A DNA stretch of 61,921 bases, counting the filler, from Stramenopiles sp. TOSAG23-6 (Eukaryota): NCBI GenBank assembly GCA_900128565.1. It is 4 parts of 4 records of this genome, joined end to end, with 100 filler letters (N's around TTAATTAATTAA, not from the genome) between each part and the next. Parts side by side here need not be neighbours in the genome. Positions count along the whole stretch, not along the records: positions 31,069 to 46,448 come from LT636117.1; 3 more parts are not named here. One strand, given 5' to 3'. Of the stretch, positions 15,397-61,921 are shown in pieces. The translations under genes were made by a program, and so were the position numbers. How positions within the stretch are numbered: position 1 is the stretch's first letter; each line of letters starts with the position of its first letter. The notes below the pieces were generated by a model, which saw only the letters and a list, made by a program, of their open reading frames with translations, was not told where the DNA came from and ran no database searches.

Positions 15397-15450
15397 GTAT
15401 GTTTTATTTTTTTTTCAAATTCGAGTTTTTTTTCATACGAAATTTTGTAC
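15397..15450 (+). mobile_element. Introner-like intron, truncated by contig end
   Basis: T|GTATGTTTT...CATACGAAATTTTGTAC. Confidence 0.85.
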
Positions 15451-15550
15451 NNNNNNNNNNNNNNNNNNNNNNNNNNNNNNNNNNNNNNNNNNNNTTAATT
15501 AATTAANNNNNNNNNNNNNNNNNNNNNNNNNNNNNNNNNNNNNNNNNNNN
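15451..15550. other. Artificial contig linker
   Basis: N-run + TTAATTAATTAA (stops in all six frames) + N-run. Confidence 0.97.
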
Positions 15551-18659: not shown

Positions 18660-20383
18660 CTACATTATAGTACAGTCATCTTTTGACATTGCAGCATCAT
18701 AAGATTTTCGTTTCAACATCCACGCAGGAAAGTCCCATGTATTATGAAAAGATATTTCAAAAATTAAAATCGTTAGGTACACATTTTCGTATGAAAAAAA
18801 AAACTAAATTAAAAATTCATGATGGAAACGTACATGGCGATTTCGTTTCATTTTTTACTGAAGACTTTTTAAATATAGAATATTCAAAATCTGCTAATTC
18901 CATTAAAAATGTTCTATTGGGGTCTATTATCGGCCGTCTTCGAGCTATATATTTATATGCTGCTTTAAGGTATTTATGCTCCTCCGACATCATAAATTAT
19001 GAAAAAATATTTCAAAAAAATACTAAAATTTGTTAGGTACAAAATTTCCTATAAAAAAAAATTATGAAAAAATATTTCAAAAAAATACTAAAATTTGTTA
19101 GGTACAAAATTTAGTACGAAAAAACAATTATGAAAAAATATTTCAAAAAAATACTAAAATTTGTTAGGTACAAAATTTACTATAAAAAAACAATGTAGAT
19201 AAAAAATTGAAATGAAAACGCACATATATGCTAAACAACAACTTGCCGAGCGTGACACACCTGCTCGACAATGCACTAGCACTTTTCCCTGTGTCTGTCT
19301 CACATTGCATATAAATTCTATTGCTTTAAGAAAATGTGGTTTAATGTTTTGTGTTACAGCGTCATCTACAGCAATTCTCATATAAATAAAATCATTTTCA
19401 TGTATTTTGGAAAAATATTTCAAAATTTTTTTTTGAAAAATTTGTTAGGTACAAAATTTCGTACGAAAAAAAAACTTTCCAAAAAAACTTTCCAAAAAAA
19501 AAAATTAAATTTGTTAGGTACAAAATTTCGTACGAAAAAAAAAATAAAATAAAACGTACATGATAACACGGAATGTCTCTTGTTACATTTAGAATGTGCG
19601 TAATACCAATTTGTTTTAATTTTTTAAAACCTAACGCATCATGTCTATCTCCTAAGTACATGAATGTTCTTATCATGTATTGTATAAGAAAAAGAAATAT
19701 AGTAAAACATTTGTTAGGTAGACATTTTTATATATAATGAAAATACTCAAAAAAAAACTTTTTTGTTTTTTTGTTAGGTACAATATTTCGTATGAAAAAA
19801 AATCTACTCAAAAAAAAAAATCTACTCAAAAAAAAAAAAAAAAAAGTTTGTGTAAGGTAAAATTTTGTATGAAAAAATATATATAATTCATAATGTAAAA
19901 CTACATGGACGGTTTATCATAGACAATTCCACCTCGTACAAAATTAACAATCTCCGCTGGCAATATTTTGGATTCTTTATATCGTTGAATTATTGTTCTT
20001 TTTCTATTTTTAGGGTTAGGGTTTCTATGTATTGGTGTTGATATTTTCTTTATTTTTTTTCTATCACTCTTACTTGATGTTGCTTTTTTCTTTTTAATCA
20101 TTTTATGATGTCGAACTTTTGGTGAATGTTTTTGTCCTGAATGTTTATTTGGTTGTATCGTGTTTTTTTTTACAGTAGATAATGATACACTGTACCTTCG
20201 ACCAATTTGACTGCTGCCTCGATTACTTTTACTATTGTTTTTCTTTACAGTAGATGATAATATAGGTAAACTATTTGCTCGCCGAAGCCTATTTTTTGTA
20301 TTTTTTGTATTCGCCATACTATCTTTAGGTAGCATATTCAGCACAGAACGGCTCTTGGAAAGCTTTACTGCACGTTTCGACAT
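18660..20383 (-). CDS. Dual-specificity phosphatase with basic N-terminus and C-terminal CTIM (exons 20383-19905, 19674-19560, 19399-19224, 18991-18834, 18736-18660)
   Basis: Spliced product PSMIRTFMYLGD...GITHILNVT...VHCRAGVSRS...AYMM...RRPIIDPNRTF...CTIM*; requires four GT-AT introns. Confidence 0.9.
18737..19904 (-). mobile_element. Four GT-AT introner-like introns in DUSP: 19675-19904, 19400-19559, 18992-19223, 18737-18833
   Basis: Each has a GT donor, 1-3 core/branch modules and an AT end; removal restores the DSP motifs. Confidence 0.88.
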
Positions 20384-23053: not shown

Positions 23054-24065
23054 TTACATATTAATACTTGAACTTTCTTTTAGTAAAGTATTCATTGATA
23101 CTTTAAGCTTTAATAACTCTGCTTCTTTTTTTTCAATCATTCTTTCCAGTTTTCTACGCTTTACAGATCGTCTGGATCTTGATTTGTCTGTATTGTGAAA
23201 AAATATTTAAAAAAAAAAAAAATGTTAGGTACAAAATTTCGTATGAAATGATTTTTTTTTAAATTTTTGTTAAAAAACATACATCTATCCACCATTGTAC
23301 ACAAATCAGGCCCAACGATGCCTTTAGAACTACTAAGTGGTATTTCATATGCTTCATCGGCGTTAAATGGTTTAATTTTATGATCTTTTCCTAAAATCTC
23401 CGGACAATGTATTTTGGAAACATATTTCAAATTTTTTTTTACCAAAAAAAAAAAAAAATTGTTAGGTACAAAATTTACTATAAAAAAAAAAAAAAAATCG
23501 ATTTTTTTGTAAAAAAAAAAAATAAAACAAACATGCAATGTGCCCTCACTAATAGATTTAATGCTATACAACAAATCATATGCTACTACTTCATTTATAG
23601 TGGAATCCTTCTTATATTTCGGATGTTCAGACACGAATTTCCGCATCCATGCTGCATTTGTGAGAAGCTCCCCAGTAGCCCTCATGACAATAAATTCCAA
23701 ATATTTGTTTACAGTAAGTCTAGTGGTATGTATTGTGAAAAAATATTTTTTTTGTTTTTTTGAGATTTTTAATTTTTTTTGTTTTTTTTTGTTAGGTACA
23801 AAATTTCGTACGAAAAAAAAAAATTAAATTCAAAATTGAAAAAAATGTAACATACACTATCACATTTGATGGTATCTAAATAAGCATGAATCAGAGGAAC
23901 AAAACCAGGGAAGAAGTTCCCTTTTCCAATGAGTATTTCGAGAGCAGTCATTTCAATTGAGCCATCATGTATTTTGGAAAAATATTTAAAAAAAAAATCT
24001 AAAAAAAATCGTTAGGTACAAAATTTCGTACGAAAAAAAAATTCGATTTTTTTTTTTTTTTTACC

Positions 24066-24096
<31 letters not shown>

Positions 24097-24724
24097 AAAC
24101 GTACATGGTCACTATGTATCGCACATTTTTTTATTCCTTTTTCCGATTTACATTCATTTTCAGATGGAGGCGCTAAATGTTTACGAAACCAAAATTTTTC
24201 TTTATTCACTGCATCAACGTTATACAATGTAGAAAAATATTTTTTTTGGTAAAATTTGTTAGGTACAAAATTTCGTATGAAAAATGTTTTAATTTTTTTT
24301 TTTTAGGAAAAAAAAACTACATGCGCTCTTTTAAGACTTTCATCAATCTTTGATATTGGTATATACATATTCAAATCGAATGCAAGAATAACACGAGATA
24401 CAAGAACTACAAAGACAGTAAATGCAGCATTTTCAAAGTCTGTTATTTGAGCTTCCATTGGTCGAAATTCTGTTCGCCATCCAATGTGATGATGTTTTTT
24501 CTGAGAATTCGTGTTTTCTTCATCCTCTGAATTATTTTTTGTTTTTTTTCGTTTTCTATTTTTTTCTACATAAGAGTCAACTGAAGAAATATCATCATCA
24601 GAATGATGAGAAGGAGTCGTTGGAGGTGAATCAGGCATATGATTGTTGTTCGACGCTGGTGGAGGTTTCCAACGGACAGTTTGCCAATTTGTAGACTGAA
24701 TATTTTCCCATGTATTGTGTAGAA

Positions 24725-24768
<44 letters not shown>

Positions 24769-26180
24769 TCGTTAGGTACAAAATTTCGTACGAAAAAAAT
24801 GTTTGGAAAAAAAAAAAAAAACATACAGTGATCAGAGTCTCGCTCGTCGTCTAGCTCAACACGCTCTTTAAACACAACTAATGGATCCCGGACGAAAAGA
24901 TGAGCAATATGAGCGGCTAAAACATCATCAACGCCACCTCGTTTCAACTCCTCTTTCACGTCTTCATCAATAGCAACTGGTACATCATTATAGCATTCAC
25001 TACATGTATTGTGAAAAATATTTTTTTTTTTTTGATTTTTTTTGTTAGGTACGGAATTTCGTACGAAAACCAAAAATAAAAATTAAAAAAAAAAATAAAA
25101 CATACATGAATGGATGTCTTTTCCTGCTTTATGGTTACATATAAAATGCGAAATAGAATCGTATCTAGACTTGTACAGACGTTTTTCACCAAATCCTGCC
25201 ATTTCTTTTTTAGATTTTGTTCCATTGAGTTGTACTGCAGGTGGAGAATGACTTCGAATAGCGGAGCAAGAATCACCAGCATAAATGCCACTCTCTTCAG
25301 GTGTGCGATCATCAACACTAGCAGCAATATAACGCCATCGAGCATCCGTATTGAGTAATTTCCCGCGCATGATAGGACATGCTGCTGTTAATGCCAACAT
25401 GACTGGAGCAAATACTGCTAAAGCATCATACAAATGGCGGGACTCTTGGATATCACAACATTGAAAAGTAACCTGCAGGCAACAGCAGCCCATGCCAAAC
25501 GCCATACAGTCCATGTGCACTTGACGATCACTTGGTGGAGTATTCGTATCTCGAAATACTGGAGCAGTAATATTTACACGACTACCTCGACGCATTCTAA
25601 TATTTTGTGTTAATGTTTTGAAACGAGGGTGAGGATTAATACACTCATCCGGAACATAAGCAGATTTTGAGTATTGACCAGGGACTTGTGCCTTGGGTAC
25701 TGTAAAGTCACCAACACCTAATAGCGGAAAGGCAACGGTAGATATCGCTGATTCATTGGGACGTAAAACTTTGATAAGTCGATTACGACGATTACGCATA
25801 TTACGTTCTACTGCAATGAGATCACTTGTGTAACCACCGTATGCAGTACGTGGTGTTGCTTCAACCATCCATGAACCGTATTCTACATGCCAGTTACACT
25901 CGCCCAGTAGAGCATCTTCTCTACCTCTTTGATTCTCCATGGTAGATAGTTCTTCAATTATTTCATGAGCACGTAAAGAAACGCGCACGCGCTTTTCTTC
26001 GTGGTCAAAAGCAACGATGTGATATTCAACTTCGTCACCCCACATAAGCACATCACCTTTGAGATTACGCATTCTACGCCAAATTGTCAAGAACTGTTGA
26101 ACACCGTGCTCACGAACATACTTTATCACGGATAGAGAATCATTCCATGGTAATGGAGTCCCTGTTTCAAGAAAACCCAT
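23054..26180 (-). CDS. GCLC: Glutamate-cysteine ligase catalytic subunit, 8 exons
   Basis: MGFLETGTPLPW, WGDEVEY, MDCMAFGMGCCCLQVTF, KSRYDS, ENIQSTNWQT, GWRTEFRPME; stop 23054 after removing 7 introns. Confidence 0.95.
23188..25105 (-). mobile_element. Seven introner-like introns in GCLC: 25004-25105, 24710-24826, 24222-24320, 23967-24104, 23728-23855, 23407-23532 (GT-AT) and 23188-23282 (GT-AG)
   Basis: Shared core TACGAAATTTTGTACCTAAC; removal gives HSCSECYND, DHWENIQ, RAHNVDAV, SDHDGSIEM, DSTTRLTV, LHCPEILG. Confidence 0.9.
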
Positions 26181-29823: not shown

Positions 29824-30068
29824 TCAAAGGGACTTGGACTTCTAAAAAAAAAAGCCCTAACCCTTGGCAAAAATTCTTATAGGAGATTGATCACAAAAAT
29901 GGTACAAATTTTCTTACTTAAAAAATATAGCTATTTTTCACTTCGGTTACATTTTTTTCATGGTAAAATTAGTAAGCCCTCCATATCAAACAAATCAATA
30001 TCAACAAATTTGAATTACTTGTAGCAAATTTCATTGAAAACCAAACAAATTAGCATATACAAGGAATC

Positions 30069-30914
30069 ATGGATACAGAAGGTGGTGTTGCAGAGGAAAA
30101 AGGTTCTTCTTCCCCTCGCGTTTCAGCTCAAGTCTCTTCCGTCGTTCAAAAGAATGTCGGAATTCGTGTTTATCCTCCCGCCCTCGATTTCGTTGGTGTT
30201 GAATTTGGACCTCTTTACGTTATGACAGTGTCTGTTCAAAACACAGACTCAAAAGTGCGAAGAATACGCATAAAACCACCCACATCAAAGTTTTTTCGCT
30301 TAGCTTATTTTCCAAATACAGCAGTAGCCCCAGGTCTAGACGCTGAATTTGAAGTTGAATTTCAAGCCTTAGTCGAACAAGATTATCATGACTCATTAGT
30401 TGTTTATTCTGGTGATGATGAAATAGAAATTCCTTTACATGCATATACCCCAGCACCCAATATTGAGTTTGAAACATTTTGTGATCTTGGTGTGGTCGTT
30501 CTTGGTAATAAAATCTCAAAATTTGTTGAATTTACTAATTTTGGACATCGACAAGGTGAAATTTCGATCGAGTGCGACGATACTAACTTTATTATATCAC
30601 CGACGAAATTTGTGATCGGTCCTAAAGGTCATTTCATTGATCAAGATAAAGACGGTCGTATGGAAGAGGATGAATGGGTTGATTTCCCACGTGATCAATG
30701 GTCTCAAAAAATTCGTGTTGAAATTGTTGGACAAGATATTGGGCCATTGAGGGCTTTAGCACAAATCAAAGTAAAAGGCGTTGATGGTTCCCGGGTTCTT
30801 GATATGAATGCTGAAATTGTCGATCAACGACTTGAGCTAGTCCCGACTGGAGGTGGAGGAGGAAAGGCCGTCACATCAATTCCATTTGGTATCATGTATT
30901 TTGGGGAGAGTCGT
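30069..30914 (+). CDS. CFAP47-like ASH/Ig-fold ciliary protein, first exon, 3' partial
   Basis: IRVYPPALDF...VSVQN...RIRIKPP...VAPGL...EIPLHAYTP; family intron donor at 30915. Confidence 0.75.
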
Positions 30915-30968
30915 GTATGTTTTATATGAATTTCTAATTTAATTTTTTTTTTTTGGTTTTCATACGAA

Positions 30969-31068
30969 NNNNNNNNNNNNNNNNNNNNNNNNNNNNNNNN
31001 NNNNNNNNNNNNTTAATTAATTAANNNNNNNNNNNNNNNNNNNNNNNNNNNNNNNNNNNNNNNNNNNN
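30969..31068. other. Artificial contig linker
   Basis: N-run + TTAATTAATTAA + N-run. Confidence 0.97.
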
Positions 31069-32713
31069 AATATTTCAAAAAAAAAAAACTTAAATTTGTT
31101 AGGTACAAAATTTCGTACGAAAAAACATCCGAATTTGAAAAAAATAAAACATACATGCTTGAGAATCAATAATATTTTTACATAAAATAGTTTTTGTGTT
31201 TTTTGTAGTATTGCAATTATCAAGTTGAATCATATTTGTATTATCAGACATTATATTTTTTTCATTGTTTGTGTTTTTTGTAGTATTGCAATTGTCAAGT
31301 TGAATCATATTTTGATCGCCATTCCTAAAATGACGCTGCGTACGCAAAAACTCTTGTGCTATATCAGGTTGTTCAAATCCATCAATTTGTTTCTTTTTAC
31401 AATCCGGGCAAGTAATGTGAAAAATATTTTTGTTTTTCGTTAGTAAAAGAAATTCGTTAGGTACAAGATTTTCATACAAAAAATAAAAAAAAATTAAAAA
31501 TGATGAAAACATACAAAACCAATCGCCTTTGGGTAAACTAACGAGAATTGGTTGTAAACAAAACATATGAAACCCTCTATCACATTTATCACATAAAAGC
31601 AGTGAATCATCGTCGCTATCATGTATTTTGAAAAATATTTCCAAAAAAAAAACTTAAATTTGTTAGGTACAAAATTTCGTACGAAAAAAAATCGATTTTT
31701 TTGTTTAGGTACAAAATTTCGTACGAAAAAAAATCGATTTTTTTGTAAAAAAAAAAAATAAAACATACATCTACAATTTTACATATATGACATTTCGCTG
31801 CACCGAACGCCAATTCTAAGAGAGCAAATTTCACTGGATTTCGTGCGAGTTTTGGTAATGATTTTTTTACCATTTTGGTTAACTTTTCGGTTTGATCATC
31901 TGATCGAATCACTTTTTTTAATTTTGGTCCAATTCGAAATTCTATATTTTCAGGATTTTTCATTGGTTTTTGATTCTGACTAAAACTAAAACAAAAATTT
32001 CTTTCTTTGTGCCATCTTGAAATCATTTGAGAAATTTGATTTCGTCTAAGAGTTACTTCGATTTCAGTAATATCAGGTGGGCCAGGTACCCTTCCTCGTC
32101 CATTGCTACTTTGTATTGTGTCATATATCTTTTGTTGTTTTTGATCATATATCTTTTGTTGTTTTTGATCATATATCTTTTGATGTTTTTGATCTTCGGT
32201 CCATCCGTCTATATCAATTGTGTAATCGTCACATACAAAAACTTCAGCAAATCCATTTGTTTGACGAGGTTTAACAAGTCGCCAATTATAGAAATAACGT
32301 AGTGCTGAATGTGAGAAATATTCAGAATTTGCAAAATTATGCGAAAGAAGACAACCATCTGCATAATCGACAGTATACTTTTGGTTACCGTGGCTTGCGA
32401 TCACTCGACCTACGTACATGTATTTTGGAAAAATATTTCAAAAAAAAAAAACGTTAGGTACAAAATTTCGTAAAAAAAAATAAATTCGAAATTGAAAAAA
32501 AATAAAACATACCAACATTTTTCTGCAACCCAATGTACACTAACAACATGGTCAAGAATATTCAAAACATCTTCTCCAGAACAATAACCTTCGGACAACT
32601 CTCTTTTTTGATACTCGACACACGTACTGTGAAAAAATATTTCAATTTTTTTTTGTTAGGTACTAAATGTCGTATGAAAAAAACATTACATTAGAAATTC
32701 ATATAAAACATAC
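31069..32713 (-). mobile_element. Introner-like introns in Tudor/PHD gene: 32622-32713 (GT-GT), 32418-32512 (GT-AT), 31621-31768 (GT-AT), 31410-31514 (GT-TT), partial 31069-31154
   Basis: Shared core and 3' box; removal restores Tudor WY.G and PHD cysteine spacing. Confidence 0.87.
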
Positions 32714-33746
32714 TTTGTTTGTACGCTTTTTTTTTTCTTTCTTCGCGAGCAGCTTTTATAGCTTTACGTTTTATCTTTGCTCTATAGCTTTGCGAGGAAT
32801 TATGGATGAACCGTTTCGCATATTTACATCTAATCGGCTGTGTCTTCCTTCGTGTTTTATTTTTTTGTTTCCTATTTTTTGAGGAGAGTGACCACCAAGC
32901 CCCAAGGTTAGTACCAACATCACCAGTTCCAGTAGATGTCTCACATTCCCAAAGCTTACCTGGATATGAATCTATGCCAACGTTTATACGAAATAAATTG
33001 TTTTCAAAATGAGTGAGGACACCTCCATGGACCAGTTTTTCTATGAGCGTCACTTGTCCCATAGCCTCCTTTGCTGCATGTAAAGCAATAGATGCAGATT
33101 TTCTTGCTTCAATGCTAGATGGCGAATCGGGTAGTGGAGGTGGTACACACTCATCTGAACTACTTGTGAGACGTCTCTTTTTCTTTCGTTTTTTAGAACT
33201 TGAGGATTGCCTCCTCTTCCTCTTCTTAATCTTTTTACTATTTGATTGTAACGGTATTTCTGTTTTGTCGAGTTCGTTCCTCTCCTTCTTAATATTTTTA
33301 CTATTTGATTGTAACGATATATCTGTTTTGTCGAGTTCGTTGAGTTTGTAGAGCACTTTTCGACATTTTCCTTCTGCTAAGTTATTCTGCAGCGACAATA
33401 ATTGCTCATGAGTCAAATTCTGCTTTTCGGTATTATCTGCTAAGCTATTCTCCAGCGACAATTCATCGTTTTTGATCTCCAAATTATTCATTGTTTCGTT
33501 ATTTTGTTTCTTTTTTGCACTCCGCTGAATTCTCTTCATCATTTCTGCTTCTTTTTTTATGTATTGGGCAAAAACACCTAATTCTATGTCACCGTCGTCG
33601 TATGCAATGTCAAATACAGTGCGGGTACTACCTTTATATGTTTTTATATTGCGGATGTTTATTATCTTCCCTGCATAGTACCCTTTTAGCTTCTTCCATC
33701 TAGCATACACGCGATCGCCATCTTTGTGAGAGGTTCTATTCTTCAT
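31155..33746 (-). CDS. Tudor-Tudor-PHD chromatin reader, 3' partial (exons 33746-32714, 32621-32513, 32417-31769, 31620-31515, 31409-31155)
   Basis: GDRVYARW..YYAGKI..YDDGD; VHWVAEKCWYVGRV..YTVDYADG; CHIC...LLLCDKCDRGFHMFCLQP...GDWFCPDC. Confidence 0.88.
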
Positions 33747-34153
33747 TATATTATCATTAATGGTGTTTCTACCTAGGAGGAGGACATCATCAAGGCGATA
33801 TACCCACGTATTGCAGAGATCGACTTTTGACGCGCGCGAGTTGAGTGATTGGATTGATCAATTGACTCCAGTTGAACCCCGATTTCGTGGACCACACTAA
33901 ATTTCGTTGTAAGTCTAGTAGTATTAGATTGAATATTTTTATGTTTTGTTTATTTATAAAAGTGATTGAATATTTTTATGCATGATTACAATACTTTGTT
34001 TCTGAACATTTTACAAACAACTAGGAGTTATTTTTTATATAAACTCTGTAAAACTGTAAAATCTCTATAGATATTTTGCGCTCGACAAATTCGAAATTCG
34101 TTTATTACGAAATTTGGTACAAATTCAATTACAGTCGTTTCTTCCAAAACAGG

Positions 34154-34766
34154 TCACAAAGAACTTGGAGAGTTTTTAGATATGGGATTAGTCCACCTAC
34201 TTTCATCAGTTTCCGCATTGTACCAGTATTTTTGGCCTATTACTATGAGAATATGATACATAAAATAGTTGTGAGTTATACAATTAACTTTCAATGTCAA
34301 AAAACGAAGGAAAAAAAAAAAAAAAGGCATTTGAAAACGTACCTGTATTTGGACAGATTGCTTCTTCCCATTTATCGTTATCGTGAAGCAAACGAGCTTC
34401 TTTCGAATTTTCTCTATAAGCGAGTTCTTGCGCCCTATTCAAGTTCTGGTTTGTCATTTGGACGTCTCTCTGTTTCATACACGGAGTAGAACCAGTGGAA
34501 TGGCGTTGAACCAATAGAAACGCCCCAACTAAAAATAGAAAATACGTTGCTGATGCAAGAAAAATTTGAGTTGATACTTTGGATACATTACCCTGCTTAT
34601 ACGTTAACTCAGGGATAAAGTCTTTTTGTGTCTTTGCTAGTATGCCCAGTATACCCAGGAAGGTCCCTGCAACTGCCGAAAATATACCACAGAATGTGCA
34701 ACACTCAGCAGATAAACAAACGTGAGTTTTAGGAGCAACACTGTCAAAATTCCAATCGTCAATCAT
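34154..34766 (-). CDS. Two-TM RNASEK/V-ATPase subunit f-like protein with C-terminal WW domain (exons 34766-34343, 34235-34154)
   Basis: CLSAECCTFCGIFSAVAGTFLGILG + second TM; GT-AG intron 34236-34342 joins WEEAICPNTG-QKYWYNAETDESRWTNP. Confidence 0.7.
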
Positions 34767-34911
34767 TTCTTCTTCAAATGCTACAAAAATACACCCACTC
34801 AAATACGAAGCTTAATAATCAATAATGACAATGCAAATATTTAATAGCACTTCTCTACTTCCTACAAAGTCTTAACAAAGATGATGAGAGAGAAGGATCG
34901 TTCACTTCGAC

Positions 34912-34933
34912 TTGATTGGCCTGATTGGCCAAT
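34912..34933. promoter_or_regulatory. Clustered CCAAT/ATTGG boxes in divergent promoter
   Basis: TGATTGGCCTGATTGGCCAAT between divergently transcribed genes. Confidence 0.45.
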
Positions 34934-35144
34934 AATTCAATTTCGATTTGCACACACACATTTTTTGCATTTATTTTTGAATGCGAATTTAGCTTAGGGT
35001 TAGGTTTTTTTTAGGAGTCATTTTCAATTTTTAATTCAATTTTCATATCATTTCAAGGAATACAAAAGAAAAATGTTTAGGTAAAATGAGTGAGAGTAAT
35101 CACAAAACGATGAACCAGATTTCAGAAATTATGTGTCAATAATC

Positions 35145-38100
35145 ATGCCCAAACCTACCACTGAATCGCTCTTCTATGATGTTGATGCACTTCGGTCTGA
35201 TGATTTTCCTCACTTAAACACAGAGATATATGCAGATTATGCAGGTGCTACTTTACCAGCAAGGTCTCAGGTGACAGCAGCAACACGTGATATTCTTGAG
35301 TATCCCTTTGGTAATCCTCATTCACGAGGACCAGCTTCCCAAAGAACATTGTCTCGTGTACAGCGAGTTAGGGAAATGGTACTGGAGTACTTTAATACAT
35401 CATCCGACGATTACTCTGTAATATTTACCGCTGGTGCAACGTCAGCCCTTAAAATGGTTGGGGAGTGTTATCCTTGGAGTAAAGAGAGTAATTTTTTTTA
35501 CTTAAAGAATAGCCACAATAGTGTCGTAGGTATACGAGAATATGTACTCAAAGCTGGCGGATCTTTCAAGGCTATACATCCGTATGAATTATTTACTGAA
35601 CATGATAATACAATTGAGTCTGATCATCAGAATCCCAACTCCAGTTTTCATAAAAAAAAAAAAGATAAATGTAGCAGTAATTTAGTGGCATTTCCCGCAG
35701 AATGTAACTTTAGCGGTACGAAATATGACTTAAGTGTCATTCATTCTATTCAAAATGGTAACATCTCTAAAAGAAGTTCGAATATTTGGGGAAGTGGACG
35801 GTGGCGAATTTTACTCGTATGTCTCATGTATTTTTGTAAAATATTGTACAATTTTTGATTTTGTTTTGTTACGTACAATATTTCGTATGAAAAAAATATT
35901 TTTTTTTAACCTACGTCTTTACCATTTGATTTCAAATTTAATTTTTTTTCACAGAAAATTTTGTATTTCATGTTTTTTTTTTGTGACATATTTTTCACAG
36001 CACTTGATGCTTCTAAATATATTTCAACGAATACTTTAGACTTAGAGAAATATTCTCCTGACTATCTCGTGTTTTCGTTTTATAAATTATTTGGATTCCC
36101 TACAGGTATCGGTGCATTATTAGTAAAGCATGATGCTGCACAAGCTCTATGTCAAAATCAAGTGTATTTTGGTGGAGGTACTATTCTTAGATTAGGTTCA
36201 GAGGGATCAGAGTTATCTTCTCTACAGCGTAAATCTGCAATGAATGAACGATTTGAACATGTATGTTTTATTTTTTTTCAAATTCGATTTTTTTTTCATA
36301 CGAAATTTTGTGAACAATAAATTATAATGCCATTATAGAACTTGAGCATGGATTTGTGTTTCTTACGTCAATTTTGAAGTATCTCAATACAAACAAATTG
36401 CTTGATGCTCAAAATGATGATTATCTCAATGCATATAAAACACAAAGTACAACAATGGATAAAACAAGAATTGATACAAACCAAAACGACACAACAATGG
36501 ACAAAACAAGAATTGATACAAACCAAAACGACACTTTACAACGAATAGCAAAATTGGCAAAAACAGCAATGAAACTAGTGAATCATCAAACATTTACTCT
36601 TGCAACGTTTTTATGGTCACAAATGACAAATTCTTCATTTCAACATTTCAATGGAAATCCAGATACGTTTTCGAAATTGAATTTTTTACCTAAATTTTGT
36701 TCTATTCCAAATTTCGTACCTAATGAATAAAACCAAAAAAAAAATATTTTTTCATAATATTGGTTGTGTTATCTATGGATGGTCAAAAAAAGTAGTACAG
36801 TCACGGATGCAAGGACCAGTGATTACTTTTAACATTATTGACCATCGAGGATTCTTTATTCCGTGTACGTTTTTATCATTCATTTCCATTTTTTTTTTCG
36901 TACGAAATTTCGTACCTAACAATAAAAACTCAAAGAAAAAAAAAATTCACATTACATATACACAAGTAGAAGAAGTACTAAATAAATACAAAATTCAAGT
37001 ACGTAGTGGGTGTTTTTGCAATCCAGGGGCGTGTACGTTTTCGTTTCAATTTCGATTTTTTGTTCGTACCAAACTTTGTACCTAACGAAAAATTTAAATT
37101 TAAAGTTTTTTCACAATACATGCCAGATATTTCTGAATCTTTCGGATGATGACATTAATGCTCAATACAAAGCTGGACATGTTTGCGGTAGTGATATTGC
37201 AGTAGTGAATGTTTTATATGAATTTCTAATTTAATTATTTTTTCATACGAAATTTCGTACCTAACATTTTTTTTTTTTTGAAATATTTTTTCACAATATG
37301 TAAATGGTATGCCTACCGGTGCAATTCGTATATCTCTAGGATCTACAAGTAACATATCAGATTGTGAATTTATAATTTCAATATTACGAAAATATTTTCT
37401 TGTCAAGAAAGATCCAAACATTCGAAATTCTTTCGAGACGAAATTTGGTACAAAATTTGGTACAGATTCAACAAAAAATGTACAAAAGAGTAGTGAGATG
37501 GTTAAAGAGCTTTGGATATATCCTATAAAATCATGCTCCGGAATACGAAAGTCATCTTGGCCTATAACAGCAAAAGGCTTTTTACTTGATCGTCATTGGG
37601 TCATCATTGAAGAAAAAGAAAACAATCTATTCACAGCATTGACACAAAAGAATTGTCCACGAATGTGTATGTTTTATTTTTTTTCAAATTCGATTTTTTT
37701 TTCGTACGAAATTGTGTACCTAACAGATTTTTTTTCAAAATATTTTTCTTAAATACATGCTTAATCCAACCAAACATTCAATTGAGGTATAAAAATAAGC
37801 AACATAATACATTTTGTGGTATCCTTCAGTTGTAGATTTTCATTATTCGTTTCCTTTTTTTTTCATACGAAATTTTGTACCTAACAAAAAAAACATTTTT
37901 TTTGACCAATTTCGAATTTCTCAACTTTTTTACAACACAGGGATGCACCAGGAATGCCTACTTTACATATACCAATATCACAGCTTGGTATTTTAAAATC
38001 ATCAATCAGTAATGCACAAGTGGAATGTGGCACTGAGCAAATTGGAAATTTCTTAGGTACGAAATTTGGTACAGATTCAATTTCGAATAATAGCTTATGT

Positions 38101-39172
38101 TTGAATAAAGCTATTGTATGTGGCAGTCAGCAAAAGATTGAATTTGTCCCAGATGCAGAGAAACAAATTTCAGATTGGCTCTCAAATTTTCTTGGACTTA
38201 CCTCTGTTTTTCTCGCCATACAACCAGAAAAATCTTTTCGAAATTTTGCAAATACAAGAGGTACTATCCTTCTTATCGGCGAAAAGAGTGTGACAGATGT
38301 ACGTTTTCATGATGAATTAAAAAAAATTTCGTACAAAATTTTGTACCTAACATTTTTTTTAGTAAAAAAAAATATTTTTTCACAATATATATACGAAACC
38401 ATGACTCTATCAATAATATACCAAGTGATATATCTGAGTCATCAGTAGGTACTACATCACGATTTAAGAACTTATCTCCACATCGATTTAGGCCTAATAT
38501 TATTATTTCATCTAATACAAAAAATGTACTTTTTCATTATGAATTTCAATTTTTTTTCCATAAAATTTGTTGTACCTGATAACAACCTAATAACAACTTT
38601 TGTATTTTTAACTTTTTTACAGTACATGCGTCTTTTATAGAGGATTCTTGGAATAAAATTTTAGTAGGAAATGTCTTACTAGATTTCGTGTCTCCATGTA
38701 TGTTTTCATTTCAATTTCGTTTTTTTTTTCGTACGAAATTTTGTACCTAACAATTGTTTTTCAAATATTTTTCAAAATACATGCAATCGATGTAGAATGG
38801 TAAATATTGACCAAACCAATGGCAAAGAATCCCCTGAATTACTCATTGTACGTTTTCAACATTGAATGTCGAATTTATTATTTTTTTCATAGAATTTTTG
38901 TTTTCTCTAATGAATTATTTTAGTAAAAAAAACATATATTTTTCACAATATTTACTCTGTCGAGGTATCGAAGGCAAAAATACAAAATCTTATTTGGGCA
39001 CTTGATGAAAATAAATGAAAGACACCATTTGGATATTGATAGAAAAACTTACCAAAAGAAGAATGGTGAATCTGATATTTTAGAAAATTTTGATTGTTCA
39101 AATATTATTTGTGAAAATACTTGTATAAAAATTATTGAGAGAAGGCGCCCACCGGCTTTGTCATTATTATAA
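35145..39172 (+). CDS. MOCOS: Molybdenum cofactor sulfurase (NifS-like + MOSC domains), 13 exons
   Basis: YADYAGATL, GNPHS, FPAECNFSG, SFYKLFGFPTGIGAL, RSGCFCNPGAC, IYPIKSC, RFRPN, CNRC; continuous after removing 12 introns (intron 2 junction damaged). Confidence 0.93.
35817..38953 (+). mobile_element. Twelve introner-like introns in MOCOS: 35817-36005 (TT end), 36261-~36311 (truncated), 36663-36762 (AT-TG), 36865-36957, 37033-37121, 37207-37301 (GA-GT, or GT-AT at 37205-37299), 37667-37758, 37832-37940 (AG end), 38299-38390, 38526-38627, 38698-38782, 38848-38953 (TT end); unlabelled ones are GT-AT
   Basis: Shared motifs; removal restores conserved MOCOS motifs at each junction. Confidence 0.87.
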
Positions 39173-39255
39173 TACTAAAAAAAAAAGTTTATTTTGTTTA
39201 ATGCATTAACTAAAACCCTAGACGTTTATTATAGAATCGATGCTATAAAAAAATA

Positions 39256-42200
39256 TCATCTATTATTTGAATGCATTTTACTTTGCAAATTTGCAATTTT
39301 TTTTTCTATTTCTTCAGTCTTTTTCTTCTCAAATTCTTGTTCAACTTTAAACTTTAGAGCTTCAAATGACCTTGGAGAAGCTTTCTCAGTATCTACAATA
39401 TCTACAATATCGTTGTTGGAAATATTTGAAGCACCCCATGAAAGACCACTGGTAGGATCGTTGTTTTTCATCCATTCAGCTGTCTCTACCCATAATTTGT
39501 TATTTGGAGTGTCGCCATTTGGCACTGCGGAAAGAAAATGTTGTTTTGACATTTTATTAGCTCTAGTGGTTGTATGTGCAAAACGCATTCTACGTATATC
39601 CCGATTATACAGTTCTTTGTTTTTTTGTGCTTCTCTTTGAGCTTGCCTCATACTACCAAGGAGGTTATTAAGATGATTCAAGTTTGGGGAGAGTTGAAAT
39701 TTTTTATCTATTAATGTAGGTTTGACCCCCATGATATTCATGTTTCCCTCTCCTTTTCCCGCAGAATTTGAACTGACTTCAAGAAATGATTCATTTCCAA
39801 AACCTGTTACAAAGCCCCCTAATTGAGAAAGGCCACTTGTAATACCAGGATCATTATTTTCAATACCCGCATAATTCAGATTTTGTGTCCCTTGTATTGA
39901 TTGTTGATTGGGTACTGGTTTATTTATTGGTATTCCCGATCCTGCTCCCGAATTGGTCGTTATTTGCTGTGCTTGTCTTTGTTGATTCATCTGCTGTGCT
40001 TGCATTTGTTGATTCATTAGCTGTATCTGTTGATTCATCTGCTGGTTCATTGGTTGATTCATCTGCTGGTTCATTGGTTGATTTATTCGGTGTATATTAT
40101 CCATGTTTATATTTGGCAAAACAATGTCCAAAGAAGCTCTACTTAGTCTAGATTGTAACTGCATCTTTCGATACTGAAACAATTGAAGGATTGAACGTTG
40201 AAGGAACTTTTCTTGATTCTTTACTTCTGTATCAGTATTTGAAGCAGCATTTGAATATTGTCGGGCAACTTCTAATGCCTTCACCGAATCATCAAGCACA
40301 TCTTGACTCACATTCCCGTTTGCAGCTGCCGCTTGCATTTCCGCAACTGTTTTTAGCGACGCTTCAAAATTCTTTTGTTTTTGAGAATTTTTAGATTTAA
40401 TTTCATTCAATAGAGTAGTCATTTGAACTGTTTTTTTCTCTTGCATAACATACATACTATCATCAGTATCAGCATTTTGTTTGCGTTGTTGAATGAATGA
40501 AAAATGCGCATTTCTGTAAATTTGTTCCATTGAGGATAGCATGTTCTTTTCAGTTACAAAGATTTGTTTTGCCTGATCCACTGCACGCTTAGAAGCAGAA
40601 TTAGCATCGTCATGATAGCTACCAGCAGTGATTAAGTTTATTCGATTTTGATGTTCTATTTTTTGACCAGCCAAATAAGCATTAAGTTGAATATTGTTAT
40701 CGTGCATCTCAATTGTTGCTTTGCTTTCCTTTTGTGTAAGTTGAAGAATCATTTCTGTATTTCTTGACTTCAAGTTTTTTGTTTTCTCTTCTAAGGACGC
40801 AATTTCAAGTTCCAAAGGGGTAATTTGTTCTTTATCATTTTCTTCATCGAAAAGATTTCTTAATTTTTGGTCTGCTATTATTTTCTCAACAATACTTTTG
40901 GAGGACTCTAAAATTTGCTTCTTTGCATTTTCTAATCGAACTGCAATATTGTGTTTCAACGAATCATTTGTAATTTTTATATTCTGAACTTGTTTTTCCC
41001 AGTAACGTTCATTTCTCAATGCTACTTCTACTTTAGCTTCCTCTCCTTGGCTTTTACTGTAACTCTTGTCTTCTTTTTTCTCAGAATCTTTTAATATGGC
41101 CCATGATTTTTTAACCGCCTCTTTGACATCGCTTATTTTTTTTTTAGATTTTTTTAATTGTAATTTTGCATCCTTTATAGATTTTTCCATTACTTTTTGA
41201 GCTTTTCCTATTTCATCCAAACGTAATTTTTGTCTCTTTTCAAAGTTTTCTTTCTCGGTCTTTGCTTTCTTTTTGCGTTCTTTTTCTTCTTCCTCCTTCT
41301 TTGCCTTTGCTTCAGCTTTAACTTGCTTTAGCGGTTTACTTGAAACAAAACAGTTTACTCTATCAAATCGTTTTGATCCATCATCGCATTTGAAAAATCC
41401 TCTTTCTTCATCATCCTTTTGCTTAGCCTCATATTTCTTTTTCTCCTCTATTTGCCATTCTTTAAATTTCTTTGCTTCACTCTCAAGGTTTTTCTTGTCT
41501 TCTTCAAAACCACTGAGTTGATTTTTTCCCAAAGCTATTATATATTGTGCGGACTCAATCTCTGCCTCAGCTGTCAACTGTTTCTCACCGAAATTGTTCG
41601 AATCTCGTTCTGTTTGTGTGCCAATCTTATAAAGAGCTTGTGAAGACGATACAGTTGCCGAAGTTGCTCTTCTTAATGCTTGTGCAGCTTCTGTACTCTC
41701 CTGCTTTGCTTTTTCAAATTTTTCCACTGCCTTCTTTAAATTAGAATCAGCTTTATCCAGCTCTTTTTTAGCTTTTTCTTCTTCTACTTTGATATTTTTT
41801 TCACTTTTTGATTTTTGTTCCAATCGAATCTTTTTTTGTTTTTCGATTTGTACCTTTTTTCGTTTCTTTTGATCAGCTTCAACTTTAGTTTTCACTGAAT
41901 TCAGGCGTTCACGTGCTTTGTCAACATCCTTTTCTGCATCGTCCATTTCCTTATGTAAAAGATTTGTTCTAGTCATGGTCTCATTGTGTAGATTTTCAAT
42001 TTGAGCGTTGATTGTTTTATTTTTCAAATTGACTTGACGTATAGCGGTAACAAACATTTCCTCAGCTTGCGCCAAATTTTTGGATTTTGTGAGGTTTACT
42101 TGTTCGTTGGCAAGTTTTACTGTTTTTTTGAAATGTTTCTCTGCTTGATCAACTTTTCGTTTCAACTCCTTCAATTTCTTTTTGATCAAAACACCCGCTC

Positions 42201-44265
42201 TATGATCTTGCGTTTTGATTTTATTTTGTATTTTTTTAGCTAGTTTATCCAACTCAGACTCTTGTTCTTCATTAAAAATTGACGATGGTTTGACCACTTT
42301 TGTACTCGCTTCCATTTCAAGAAATGATGTATTTGTGCTATTTAATGTACTTGTGCTATTTTTATCTTCTTCGTCTGGATTAAAGTACAAGGATAATGAT
42401 GATCGCCTTGGAGCATTATCATCATCGGTAGTAGAATCCGTATTGTTGCTAGATGTTCCATCGGGTATAGTAGAATTACTCAATGAAATATCAAGTGTAG
42501 TAGAATCACTAGATGAAGTATCAGGTAAAGTAGAATTACTCAATGAAATATCAACCGTAGTAGAATTACTATTCGCTATTTTCTGATTCTTTTGATTTGT
42601 ATATAAAAGAACATCCATGAGAGAATTTTCAAGTGTAAGACGAAGTTCTAGTTGATCCATCATCTTTCGTTGGTAATCCATTTTTCTTGCTCTTTCAACC
42701 ACATTTTCTATTTGTTGTTCAATATCCTCGTAGGAAGACCCGAGTTGTAAACCTTCTTTTTCTGTGTTTCGAATATTAATTGTTGTAGTTTTTGTTGACC
42801 CTTCTTTTGTTGAAAAATAATGTGGCTCGAAACCTTTGTCAAAATTATACTTTACGGTTGTATTGGCGTGCTTCGTCACATCTATTGATATTGGATATGA
42901 CTTGGCAATAAATTTGTTGTCTTTTGTGAAATAACGTAAGTTGTACAATCCACTTTGCGTTAGTTCATTGCCTACATCCCATCTAAATCCTCCATCTTTT
43001 ACTGTTTCAATACCAACAGGAAACTTGTGAATAATAAATTTATTTTGTTTACCAATGGGATAGAGGCCAACATAATCTCCTGGGACATACTTTCGGTTAG
43101 ACGGTTGACCGAATTTCAAGAAGACTTTTGTACTACCCAATAATGGTTTCAGCCACTTTTTTGATTTTTTTGCGTTTTCTTTTTCTTTTTGTAGTTTATC
43201 TTGGCCAAGTGAATCTATAACAGAGTCATGGTGAATCCCCATATTTGCAGAATGATCAGAAGAATGATCAGCTCGCAATACCTTGGGAGATGTAGATGTT
43301 TCGTCACTTTCAATTCCAAGTATTGTCAGTTGCTGAAGTCTATCAAGAAATGAAGTCTCAATTATGTGACCGTTTGGCATAAATGGCATATTCATTTCTG
43401 AGTTGTTTTGTGGCTCATTATTTGGCATAAATGGCATATTCATTTCTGAGTTGTTTTGGCGCTCATTATTTAAAGTGGAAACTTTGTTTGATGATTCCAA
43501 CTCCACGAAAGAATTCACTGTCTCAGCATCAAAACCCTCCAATGATTGACTATTCAATTGTGATGAAAGACTCGTAGCACGAATGGCCATACCTACTACT
43601 TCATTTTCTGCTTTCAGGTTAAAAGCTGCCATGTCTTGTTGGACTAGATTCGCGGTAGTTCCTTTGAATCGAGCAGTGTCATTATCGCTAGGGGGAATCA
43701 AGCATGTAGATTGTGTTTCATAGCACTGTGATCTTTTCAACTGACAACCTTTTTTTCCATCAGAGCCCAAACACCAACTACAATTCGCATTGCCTAAGCA
43801 AACGCTACAGTCTTTAATGTTCAAACAATCTTCTTCACAGACGTTAAACATCCAACTACTTCCACAGATATGTGCCAAATCACCCATATTATTACCTCTA
43901 CGACATGTGGAAGTAGATGCACACCATCCACAATCAATATTTGAGGTGCACTCAGAACATGAAGCAGCTCCAAGTGCCGTACAATCATCGAGAGGATTTT
44001 TTAGCGTTAGGCTTATATCTCTATTAGTATTTTCAGAAGGTAACATACCACCTCGTAAGTGAAGACCAAGACGCTCAAATTCATTTACTGCTGCTCGAGT
44101 TTCTCTTTCAACGTACTTTATATCTTCAGCTGGAACGTCTCTATACGAGTGGATAGGAATGTCCCTTACTTCATTTTGAATAATTTGTATAGCACAAACC
44201 TTTAACCAAACTAGTATAAAGTATATGAGTGATAGAGGTTGTATAAATTTGTAATGATGCGACAT
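39256..44265 (-). CDS. Large secreted protein: signal peptide, PSI-like Cys repeats, long coiled coil, Q/N-rich tail
   Basis: Hydrophobic N-terminus; SCSECTSNIDCGWCASTSTC and DCSVCLGNANCSWC; 1669-aa intronless ORF. Confidence 0.8.
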   Translation of the reverse strand: MSHHYKFIQPLSLIYFILVWLKVCAIQIIQNEVRDIPIHSYRDVPAEDIKYVERETRAAVNEFERLGLHLRGGMLPSENTNRDISLTLKNPLDDCTALGAASCSECTSNIDCGWCASTSTCRRGNNMGDLAHICGSSWMFNVCEEDCLNIKDCSVCLGNANCSWCLGSDGKKGCQLKRSQCYETQSTCLIPPSDNDTARFKGTTANLVQQDMAAFNLKAENEVVGMAIRATSLSSQLNSQSLEGFDAETVNSFVELESSNKVSTLNNERQNNSEMNMPFMPNNEPQNNSEMNMPFMPNGHIIETSFLDRLQQLTILGIESDETSTSPKVLRADHSSDHSANMGIHHDSVIDSLGQDKLQKEKENAKKSKKWLKPLLGSTKVFLKFGQPSNRKYVPGDYVGLYPIGKQNKFIIHKFPVGIETVKDGGFRWDVGNELTQSGLYNLRYFTKDNKFIAKSYPISIDVTKHANTTVKYNFDKGFEPHYFSTKEGSTKTTTINIRNTEKEGLQLGSSYEDIEQQIENVVERARKMDYQRKMMDQLELRLTLENSLMDVLLYTNQKNQKIANSNSTTVDISLSNSTLPDTSSSDSTTLDISLSNSTIPDGTSSNNTDSTTDDDNAPRRSSLSLYFNPDEEDKNSTSTLNSTNTSFLEMEASTKVVKPSSIFNEEQESELDKLAKKIQNKIKTQDHRAGVLIKKKLKELKRKVDQAEKHFKKTVKLANEQVNLTKSKNLAQAEEMFVTAIRQVNLKNKTINAQIENLHNETMTRTNLLHKEMDDAEKDVDKARERLNSVKTKVEADQKKRKKVQIEKQKKIRLEQKSKSEKNIKVEEEKAKKELDKADSNLKKAVEKFEKAKQESTEAAQALRRATSATVSSSQALYKIGTQTERDSNNFGEKQLTAEAEIESAQYIIALGKNQLSGFEEDKKNLESEAKKFKEWQIEEKKKYEAKQKDDEERGFFKCDDGSKRFDRVNCFVSSKPLKQVKAEAKAKKEEEEKERKKKAKTEKENFEKRQKLRLDEIGKAQKVMEKSIKDAKLQLKKSKKKISDVKEAVKKSWAILKDSEKKEDKSYSKSQGEEAKVEVALRNERYWEKQVQNIKITNDSLKHNIAVRLENAKKQILESSKSIVEKIIADQKLRNLFDEENDKEQITPLELEIASLEEKTKNLKSRNTEMILQLTQKESKATIEMHDNNIQLNAYLAGQKIEHQNRINLITAGSYHDDANSASKRAVDQAKQIFVTEKNMLSSMEQIYRNAHFSFIQQRKQNADTDDSMYVMQEKKTVQMTTLLNEIKSKNSQKQKNFEASLKTVAEMQAAAANGNVSQDVLDDSVKALEVARQYSNAASNTDTEVKNQEKFLQRSILQLFQYRKMQLQSRLSRASLDIVLPNINMDNIHRINQPMNQQMNQPMNQQMNQQIQLMNQQMQAQQMNQQRQAQQITTNSGAGSGIPINKPVPNQQSIQGTQNLNYAGIENNDPGITSGLSQLGGFVTGFGNESFLEVSSNSAGKGEGNMNIMGVKPTLIDKKFQLSPNLNHLNNLLGSMRQAQREAQKNKELYNRDIRRMRFAHTTTRANKMSKQHFLSAVPNGDTPNNKLWVETAEWMKNNDPTSGLSWGASNISNNDIVDIVDTEKASPRSFEALKFKVEQEFEKKKTEEIEKKIANLQSKMHSNNR

Positions 44266-44599
44266 TTGTGGTTATATTCAGCTATGTAATGTATAGAATG
44301 TTCGAGTATAGCATGCACCACTTGTAATTGTTTTCGTGTTTCCTGCGAGTAGCTACCTCTTGCTCTTGGTTTTTAGAAATAGAAATTTTGAATTTTTTTA
44401 CACAGGAACAACGACTTTTGAAAAAAAACTGCATAATTTATGAACAAACCTGTCCCAGCGCAATTGTAACCGTCCTCCTCATCTTAGCAAAAAGGGAATC
44501 TTTGATTTTAGTCTCTTTTGTAGTTAACAAACTATGAACAATGCATTTACTTTGATTACTCATCGCGAAATTACTCTCTAAATTACACCCAATATTCGA

Positions 44600-46448: not shown

Positions 46449-46548
46449 NNNNNNNNNNNNNNNNNNNNNNNNNNNNNNNNNNNNNNNNNNNNTTAATTAA
46501 TTAANNNNNNNNNNNNNNNNNNNNNNNNNNNNNNNNNNNNNNNNNNNN
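46449..46548. other. Artificial contig linker
   Basis: N-run + TTAATTAATTAA + N-run. Confidence 0.97.
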
Positions 46549-61865: not shown

Positions 61866-61921
61866 ATGTATTTTGGAAAAATATTTCAAAATTAAATTCG
61901 TTAGGTACAAAATTTCGTATG
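61866..61921 (-). mobile_element. 3' part of introner-like intron (AT end), truncated by window end
   Basis: CATACGAAATTTTGTACCTAAC...TATTTTTCCAAAATACAT|G. Confidence 0.85.

Follow-up and report, generated by a model that had tools for sequence, protein, structure and literature searches.

Two inserts in a Tudor/PHD gene of Stramenopiles sp. TOSAG23-6 are, in our judgment with high probability, U2-type spliceosomal introns made by an introner family of ~100-nt elements with thousands of copies. Their borders are probably GT donors with AT (Tudor intron) and TT (PHD intron) acceptors, rather than AG acceptors or TG-CA or AT-AC borders. The evidence for this assignment is drawn from DNA and protein: the copy family itself, the reading frame, homology of the joined products, co-variation of the intron ends and the sequence of U1.

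The host gene and its two inserts

The window (the whole 61,921-nt stretch of DNA that was analysed) is AT-rich eukaryotic DNA in which contigs are joined by N runs with a TTAATTAATTAA spacer near 15450-15550, 30970-31068 and 46441-46548. Five exons of the Tudor/PHD gene are visible on the minus strand before it breaks off at 31069 (Table 1). At this joint (30970-31068) both the Tudor/PHD gene and a CFAP47-like gene (30054-30929, a label judged from Ig-like domains) are interrupted inside family introns. The SET domain that is present in the orthologue P0336 falls outside the window, past the contig end. P0336 itself has matches to the SET domain (E 5e-48) and the PHD finger (E 2e-15) of ATXR5/6, and its alignment with the joined gene model covers residues 108-729 (E 7e-75). 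ATXR5 and ATXR6 are H3K27 monomethyltransferases; compared with them, the gene in the window adds Tudor-like segments ahead of the PHD finger.

Table 1. Positions of exons, introns and other genes discussed in the text
Feature	Positions	Strand	Remarks
Exon 1, Tudor/PHD gene	32714..33746	-	First Met 33746; aligns to P0336; weak Tudor-like domain
Intron 1, Tudor/PHD gene	32622..32713	-	Family intron, 92 nt, read GT..GT; ends uncertain
Exon 2, Tudor/PHD gene	32513..32621	-	Ends TGT TG; second Tudor-like domain begins; P0336 alignment
Tudor intron	32418..32512	-	95 nt, GT..AT, without AG; CTAAC branch A at 32454
Exon 3, Tudor/PHD gene	31769..32417	-	Tudor-like Y-V-G-R-V to first PHD C-x2-C
Intron 3, Tudor/PHD gene	31621..31768	-	Family intron, 148 nt, GT..AT, internal core doubled
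Exon 4, Tudor/PHD gene	31515..31620	-	PHD finger to W-F; ends in TT
PHD intron	31410..31514	-	105 nt, GT..TT, without AG
Exon 5, Tudor/PHD gene	31155..31409	-	Final C-x2-C of PHD finger and linker
Intron 5, Tudor/PHD gene	31069..31154	-	Family intron, CAT/GTATGT, cut short by N run
Glutamate-cysteine ligase (GCL)	23188..25105	-	Seven family introns: six GT..AT, one GT..AG
Molybdenum cofactor sulfurase (MOCOS)	35817..38953	+	Twelve inserts; GT..TT introns 35817-36005, 38848-38953

Exon 1 lies in an open frame that spans 32691-33857, and its matches to Pfam Tudor profiles (E 0.02-0.12) are under the cut-off; a Pfam search of exons 2 and 3 taken singly returned no Tudor match. The Tudor label at the exon 2/3 junction is therefore based on W-Y-x-G, which we take to be a Tudor motif, in combination with the first Tudor-like repeat and the orthologue. 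Exon 4 matches the PHD profile PF00628 (E 1.1e-8) over profile positions 9-43 of 47, so that the last C-x2-C is left to exon 5.

The junction sequences quoted in a preliminary description of this DNA were all found exactly on the minus strand (a slash marks the border): TGT TG/GTATGT at 32512 and AAAATACAT/G TAC at 32418 for the Tudor intron, and TGG TTT T/GTATGT at 31514 and CACATTACTT/GC CCG GAT TGT at 31410 for the PHD intron. Exact excision of the Tudor intron gives W-Y-V-G-R-V, which contains the W-Y-x-G that had been reported, and exact excision of the PHD intron reproduces the reported W-F-C-P-D-C; both joins are gapless against P0336 (AENAWYVGRV; KGSWHCDACK). When frame-keeping variants were scored against P0336, the Tudor join at 0,0 ranked first of 200 (score 199; best GT-AG variant, 157), and the PHD join at 0,0 shared the top score among 350. 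Combining the GT donor with the first downstream AG leads to a stop 8 codons later for the Tudor intron (AG at +8) and to an immediate stop for the PHD intron (AG at +17), and no stop-free GT/GC-AG option was found at the PHD junction within the range tested. The branch A of the Tudor intron lies 36 nt ahead of the intron end, and the PHD intron has two branch candidates: one, a CTAAC at 31457, lies 47 nt ahead of the intron end, and the other, at 31440, is a perfect TACTAAC 30 nt ahead of it.

Two other introns of this gene were ranked against P0336 in the same way. Intron 1 must be removed to keep the frame (if it is kept, a stop follows at aa 387), and its GT..GT reading ranks just 141 of 241, with an in-frame GT-AG option (donor +4, AG -5) also available. 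Intron 3 ranks 14 of 208 and lies in a variable loop.

A probable intron family with thousands of copies

Both inserts belong to a family whose core is a 22-nt motif. We found 39 occurrences of this core in the window (at most 5 mismatches) and 7,499 (3,828 + 3,671) in the 21.1-Mb genome (at most 2 mismatches), where the reversed pattern used as a control had 0 matches. From 336 cores in 857 kb (81 stretches), 169 copies with both ends called were obtained, of which 160 were unique; 167 cores without two ends, and 9 copies that were duplicates or touched N's, were left out. The profiles used to call copies omitted the positions being tested. The automatic caller is imperfect, as it missed the PHD intron and miscalled one of 15 copies in the window.

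The 160 copies have a median length of 99 nt, without bias to multiples of three (48, 58, 54), and their branch motif lies at a median of 39 nt from the intron end. They start with GT (156), GA (3) or GC (1), counts that come from copies found with a donor profile, and they end in AT (121), TT (13), GT (9), AG (9), AC (3) or other dinucleotides (5). The exons that flank them match many different Pfam families. Joining the exons at the motif ends left a frame open for at least 120 nt on both sides in 126 of 158 copies, compared to 11-19 of 158 for frame-shifting offsets, 29/146 and 30/144 for AG alternatives and 9/158 for the antisense strand. With offsets of 3 and 6 the outcome resembles that at the motif ends (116-128 of 158 open), so this test resolves the length removed modulo 3 only.

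Homologue profiles were used to rank the joins in other genes. In GCL, the seven joins rank 1, 1, 1, 1, 2, 3 and 1 among 198-232 variants, with a GT-AG reading of intron 1 scoring nearly as well (132.1 vs 133.0). In MOCOS, nine of twelve inserts are at rank 1 or 2 (1, 65, 1, 2, 1, 2, 1, 2, 249, 25, 1, 1), including both GT..TT introns (1/303 and 1/288); those at ranks 65, 249 and 25 are without support. A family intron in PDH E1-alpha ranks 1 of 311 and is without any GT-AG option. Once joined, GCL and PDH E1-alpha, both essential genes, read through intact.

The top homologue of GCL is its own public model (label GSMAST32, which we read as a MAST-3 stramenopile), followed by a protein with the label INCI, presumably Incisomonas, at 53%. 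In the public GCL model, intron DNA is translated and real exon sequence is omitted. Protein searches recovered no spliced product of this species, the best non-self matches being 53-55% identical for GCL and 82-83% for PDH.

Matching bases at the intron borders

Across the 160 copies, the last bases of the intron co-vary with the last bases of the upstream exon. Matches number 131 at position -2 (101.7 when shuffled, p 2e-4) and 141 at position -1 (133.7 when shuffled, p 2e-4), and co-variation is absent at -3 and -4. Among the 39 ends other than AT, 19 repeat the exon dinucleotide (in 10,000 shuffles, a mean of 2.4 and a maximum of 9), and 9 of 13 TT-ending copies are preceded by an exon that ends in TT. 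A locus-specific match of ends serves as a criterion for calling target-site duplications in the accessible text of PMC9860276, and co-variation of this kind is what a 2-nt target-site duplication would tend to give. The PHD intron ends in TT and its upstream exon also ends in TT; it would thus end in TT as a result of insertion behind TT. The Tudor intron (exon TG, intron AT) and 23 of 121 AT-ending copies are off the duplication rule, so these must be assumed to have drifted later or to have been converted to the consensus.

Of the features that mark introners, many copies in unrelated genes and a locus-specific match of ends are both present. The terminal inverted repeats of the family span only ~4-7 nt (GTAT..ATAC), and no autonomous transposon with the family ends was found in a search that covered one transposase family (PF13359, 5 matches) and the inspection of two loci. 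Those two PF13359 loci were rejected as the partner transposon, both being without the family ends. PF13359 (DDE) transposase-like genes are carried by L112 and L113, and one of them, found at identical coordinates on four contigs, faces a second open frame, a layout that we take to be Harbinger-like.

U1 and other parts of the splicing machinery

The sole U1 found in the genome occurs on two identical contigs and scores 54.1 bits against an Rfam gathering cut-off of 69.5. Its 5' end reads AAACGUACAUGG, compared to AUACUUACCUGG in Rfam, and is altered at positions 2, 5 and 9 (including U5G and C9A). The C9A change pairs with a T at -1, found in 92% of copies, and U5G pairs with C or T at +4. 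Mean pairing between donor and U1 is 7.81 of 9, as opposed to 6.27 with a standard end and 0.75-4.62 for shifted donors, a figure that is partly circular because a donor profile was used to find the copies. Three genomic matches to the standard U1 12-mer were considered and are not U1 genes. The snRNA genes for U5, U2, U1 and U4 form a head-to-tail cluster that fits within 640 bases (L011:9-645 on C1146; duplicate C6122). U1 positions 5-11 have the same sequence (RTACAT/G) as the usual intron end and the exon base that follows it, so the acceptor mimics U1.

The remaining core components that we examined are largely ordinary. We saw nothing unusual in the U2 branch box, in U5 loop 1 or in the U6 ACAGAGA box, and the family branch motif CTAAC (32454, 31457 and 31440 in the two inserts) can pair with the unchanged U2 GUAGUA. 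Of the features of a U2-type intron, a donor complementary to U1 and U6 and a branch motif able to pair with U2 are present, and a terminal AG is not: neither insert contains an AG, and 9 of 160 copies end in one. The genome contains U2, U4, U5, U6, Prp8, U2AF65 and Slu7. The part of Prp8 that was examined (941 aa) can be aligned over its full length to human Prp8, and in this part, which includes a region that we take to be the alpha-finger, we found no clear change to account for the acceptor. At residues about 308-315, Prp8 (L015) reads MTAGQATF where the human protein has MASGSTTF, in a stretch that is otherwise highly conserved.

One U2AF65-like gene was found, and its product keeps the stretch RKRRKKSNFTDGP, presumably a partner-binding-like motif. 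U2AF35 was not found in our genome searches, an absence that means little since three of five control families (Prp18, SF1-HH and SF3b1) likewise escaped detection and a fourth came up only weakly. Two candidates for U2AF35 were rejected: the lone motif match lies in another frame of an unrelated gene, and the lone protein match is an RRM protein.

A model for intron insertion and removal

From these data we infer that splicing takes place, that the spliceosome carries it out, that the duplication stems from transposition, and how the acceptor is chosen. In the model that we propose, the element comes with its own GTAYGT donor, CTAAC branch and 3' box (TTTTYCAMAATAY), and its insertion would duplicate two host bases, mostly AT in a CAT^G context. 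The second copy of the duplicated bases would become the last two bases of the intron, such that excision from GT through this copy would restore the frame exactly. The donor would be read by a U1 altered to pair with CAU/GUAYGU and then by a normal U6, and the acceptor would be chosen without AG, probably via the 3' box of the element and its distance from the branch.

A broader proposal, which we offer tentatively and consider somewhat unlikely, is that the entire splicing consensus of this lineage moved from CAG/GT..CAG/G to CAT/GT..CAT/G under the pressure of a single transposon, with U1 rewritten (C9A, U5G) to match the insertion site, AG reading by U2AF35 lost or bypassed, and the 3' cut set by the element box whatever two bases (AT, TT, GT or AG) follow it. 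If this were true, it would describe a natural major spliceosome, with Prp8 and the snRNA core unchanged, that needs no acceptor dinucleotide.

RNA contigs on the stretch

RNA contigs from 4 runs of 3 studies, each with 5-15% of words, were placed on 31075-46425, yielding more than a thousand contigs (X1-X3) and 41 (X4). Among the 15 of 76 joints listed, none spans an intron of the Tudor/PHD gene, and none of the contigs listed bridges the Tudor or the PHD junction. Two contigs, X2 record 10 (32682-33020) and X1 record 5 (35880-36077), cross family-intron borders unspliced and may represent DNA, pre-mRNA or intron retention. Contigs that derive from other family copies accumulate over the introns and end at 32417, 32418 and 32512, and these break-offs support the borders of the element. 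X3 record 18 stops at 34235, beside a GT-AG intron at 34237-34342, with 36 letters unplaced, and was not counted.

Register and alternative explanations

The preliminary description regarded both junctions as fixing the register and the zinc-ligand cysteine of the PHD finger as dependent on a TT acceptor, and both statements go too far. At the Tudor junction, registers 0 to +3 give an identical mRNA and +4 to +7 an identical protein (including a GT..AC reading), so that the Tudor W rules out leftward shifts only; our recalculation agrees that shifts of -1 and -2 replace it by L and M. At the PHD junction, registers -2 to +1 give an identical mRNA (TT-AC, TG-CT, GT-TT and TA-TG) and +2 an identical protein, and this junction therefore rules out none of the readings that had been rejected. 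The cysteine is retained at shifts from -5 to +5, meaning that it depends on the length removed and not on TT as such. The argument that had been made against TG-CA and AT-AC readings is thus insufficient, as it bears on leftward shifts only, but its conclusion has support from U1, from stops and from conserved GCL residues.

What appears to pin the GT donor is the only U1 found, and the stops and conserved residues elsewhere are in agreement. In the established U1/U6 geometry the cut falls before GT, and because the altered U1 pairs at shift 0, the cut would be placed before GT here as well; with a GT donor and a length set by homology, the acceptors would be AT and TT. Removal of the same stretch in another register (AT..AC, TG..CA or TA..NG), for example by a minor-type or altered spliceosome, could draw on the several registers over which most junctions, including the Tudor and PHD junctions, give one mRNA, and on the AT that precedes GT in 111 of 160 copies. 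We judge it very improbable, given that the Tudor W kept in P0336 disappears at -1 and -2, shifts that also give stops in three copies, that a GCL His (117/119 homologues) is altered at -2 and a GCL Cys (80/119 homologues) at +1, and that it is the upstream and not the downstream copy of the duplicated bases that drifts at third codon positions (13/40 vs 4/40, p 0.027; upstream mismatches at -2 fall on third positions in 13/40 vs 8/86, p 0.002). U12 and U6atac were not found in genome searches run without a positive control, and a U12-type intron was rejected, the family donor being GTAYGTTT and not RTATCCTT and the median distance from branch to end 39 nt and not 9-12. That the PHD insert is translated as 35 residues, such that no GT-TT intron exists, is very unlikely in our estimation. 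If kept in the mRNA the insert is indeed in frame and stop-free over its 105 nt, TT is a minority end in the family, this copy diverges from the core and escaped the automatic caller, and an RNA join across it is lacking among those listed; yet translation would part W-F from the last C-x2-C where both the orthologue and Pfam are gapless, and the insert still has its GTATGT, a pair of CTAAC sites and the 3' box. The first-ranked GT..TT introns of MOCOS and the absence of a multiple-of-three bias in family lengths also argue against a translated insert.

Excision by a spliceosome is likewise preferred over removal without one, either by pairing of inverted ends, as in euglenids, or by excision of DNA, which we regard as highly improbable. 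CAT/GTAT is complementary to ATACAT/G, and the ends pair in two of four folded copies (z -3.5, -3.8), but the Tudor and PHD introns fold no better than shuffled sequences (z -0.69, +0.16), on which basis a hairpin or euglenid model was rejected for these two. In addition, the copies are oriented in sense, they keep a branch motif at a median of 39 nt from the end, and U1 matches their donor. The ends of the GT-TT copy cannot pair, and this copy therefore allows spliceosomal recognition to be told apart from removal guided by a hairpin. An explanation of the missing AG as an amplification or assembly artefact, or as a sign of dead genes, can be nearly dismissed: the assembly does consist of 6,236 contigs, a fragmented state, and the 3' half of one MOCOS copy (36261) is absent, but 160 copies with open joins all show this pattern, contigs from three studies carry other copies whose ends break off at the same places, and essential genes such as GCL and PDH E1-alpha read intact.

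Comparison with known systems

According to the accessible text of PMC13326754 and PMC11282704, Fritillaria borealis and F. pellucida have non-canonical U2 introns, and 44% and 34% of introns, respectively, end in AT. As far as these sources describe them, the Fritillaria introns resemble the present family in their transposon-like origin, border duplication, frequent 3' AT and use of the major spliceosome, and in the YAY triplet before the donor and at the intron end (PMC13326754). Fritillaria differs in its mostly AG donors, its strictly preserved U1 5' end and its duplicated U2AF (PMC13326754), whereas the MAST-3 family keeps GT donors (156/160) with an altered U1 and includes TT and GT ends, and a single family dominates the copies examined in the MAST-3 genome. 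The Fritillaria case, in the portions available, is founded on cDNA and the MAST-3 case on DNA and protein sequence.

The Micromonas IE1 and Chrysochromulina sp. family 5 elements, as portrayed in the accessible parts of PMC11282704 and PMC9860276, are similarly short, high in copy number, oriented with the gene and spliced seamlessly, and they too carry a 5' site and take the acceptor from duplicated host bases. Micromonas IE1 co-opts an acceptor AG with a 3-nt duplication, and the Chrysochromulina duplication is 4 nt (PMC11282704, PMC9860276). In contrast, the MAST-3 duplication is 2 nt and mostly AT, and consequently no AG target is needed.

Changes in the U1 5' end that restore pairing with an atypical donor have a parallel in Entamoeba and Mastigamoeba, where, in the text available from 10.1101/2022.06.08.495308, they complement intronic donor positions. 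The MAST-3 genome differs in its non-AG acceptors and in C9A, a change that fits the -1 base of the exon, the base that is also duplicated. The introners of Amoebophrya (PMC7789003, in part) are likewise from a marine protist and consist of numerous repeated introns without GT-AG ends, which standard gene predictors fail to handle, but there no clear end signature and no U1 was detected, whereas the MAST-3 family has strict ends and a U1 is present. U12-type introns of Physarum share GT-AT ends (17% of non-canonical U12 introns) and snRNA co-evolution, according to the available text of 10.1101/2020.10.12.336362, and differ in that their donors read RTATCYTT and their branch lies 9-12 nt from the end, where the MAST-3 family has GTAYGT and a branch about 30-47 nt upstream. 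In a literature search with little coverage of subscription papers, we found neither non-AG introns nor a changed U1 reported for MAST-3; the supplementary tables of introner surveys could already list the family.

Implications

Introns run near-universally from GT to AG, and few eukaryotic signals are more strongly conserved than the terminal AG. If thousands of GT introns in one genome end in AT, TT or GT, alongside a normal Prp8 core, normal U2, U5 and U6 and an altered U1, that genome would offer a natural test of whether AG is needed for the chemistry of splicing or merely for recognition. Such a case would be independent of Fritillaria, and it would become one of few instances of co-evolution between an snRNA and a splice site, here linked to the target site of a transposon.

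There are also consequences for annotation. The public models P0001 and P0208 are wrong, as they translate intron DNA and skip real exon sequence. For MAST-3F, a low gene count and a small enzyme repertoire are reported in the accessible text of PMC5778133, and statements of this kind on MAST-3 gene content deserve a recheck for introns of this class.

Atypical copies and intron density

Several copies depart from the common form. A degenerate, inverted family copy (35824-35972) lies within the first MOCOS intron and suggests insertion at the DNA level; the same intron has an AG 5 nt before its true TT end, out of frame. The MOCOS copy at 36261-36310 is without branch site and 3' half, and the conserved motif there fits no join with a GT start; this copy is a deletion or an assembly error. 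The copies at 36663-36762 and 37207-37301 have atypical starts (AT.. or GA..) and an ambiguous register, and the latter reads GT..AT when shifted two bases leftward. Two or three tandem internal cores are found in family introns at 19000-19560 and 31621-31768. Another PHD finger, at L079:5302-5393, has a conserved W that needs the 0 register at a TG/GT..AT/G junction. On the minus strand at 34237-34342, an ordinary-looking GT..AG intron without the family core follows an exon that ends in AG, in a gene with V-ATPase-f-like and WW-like parts.

Intron density in the window is patchy. GCL has seven introns and MOCOS twelve, compared to none in a 2,746-aa Piezo frame and none in a 1,671-aa frame, and the intron-free frames fall in the regions 39256-44271 and 53645-61885, as opposed to the intron-rich regions 23188-25105 and 35817-38953.
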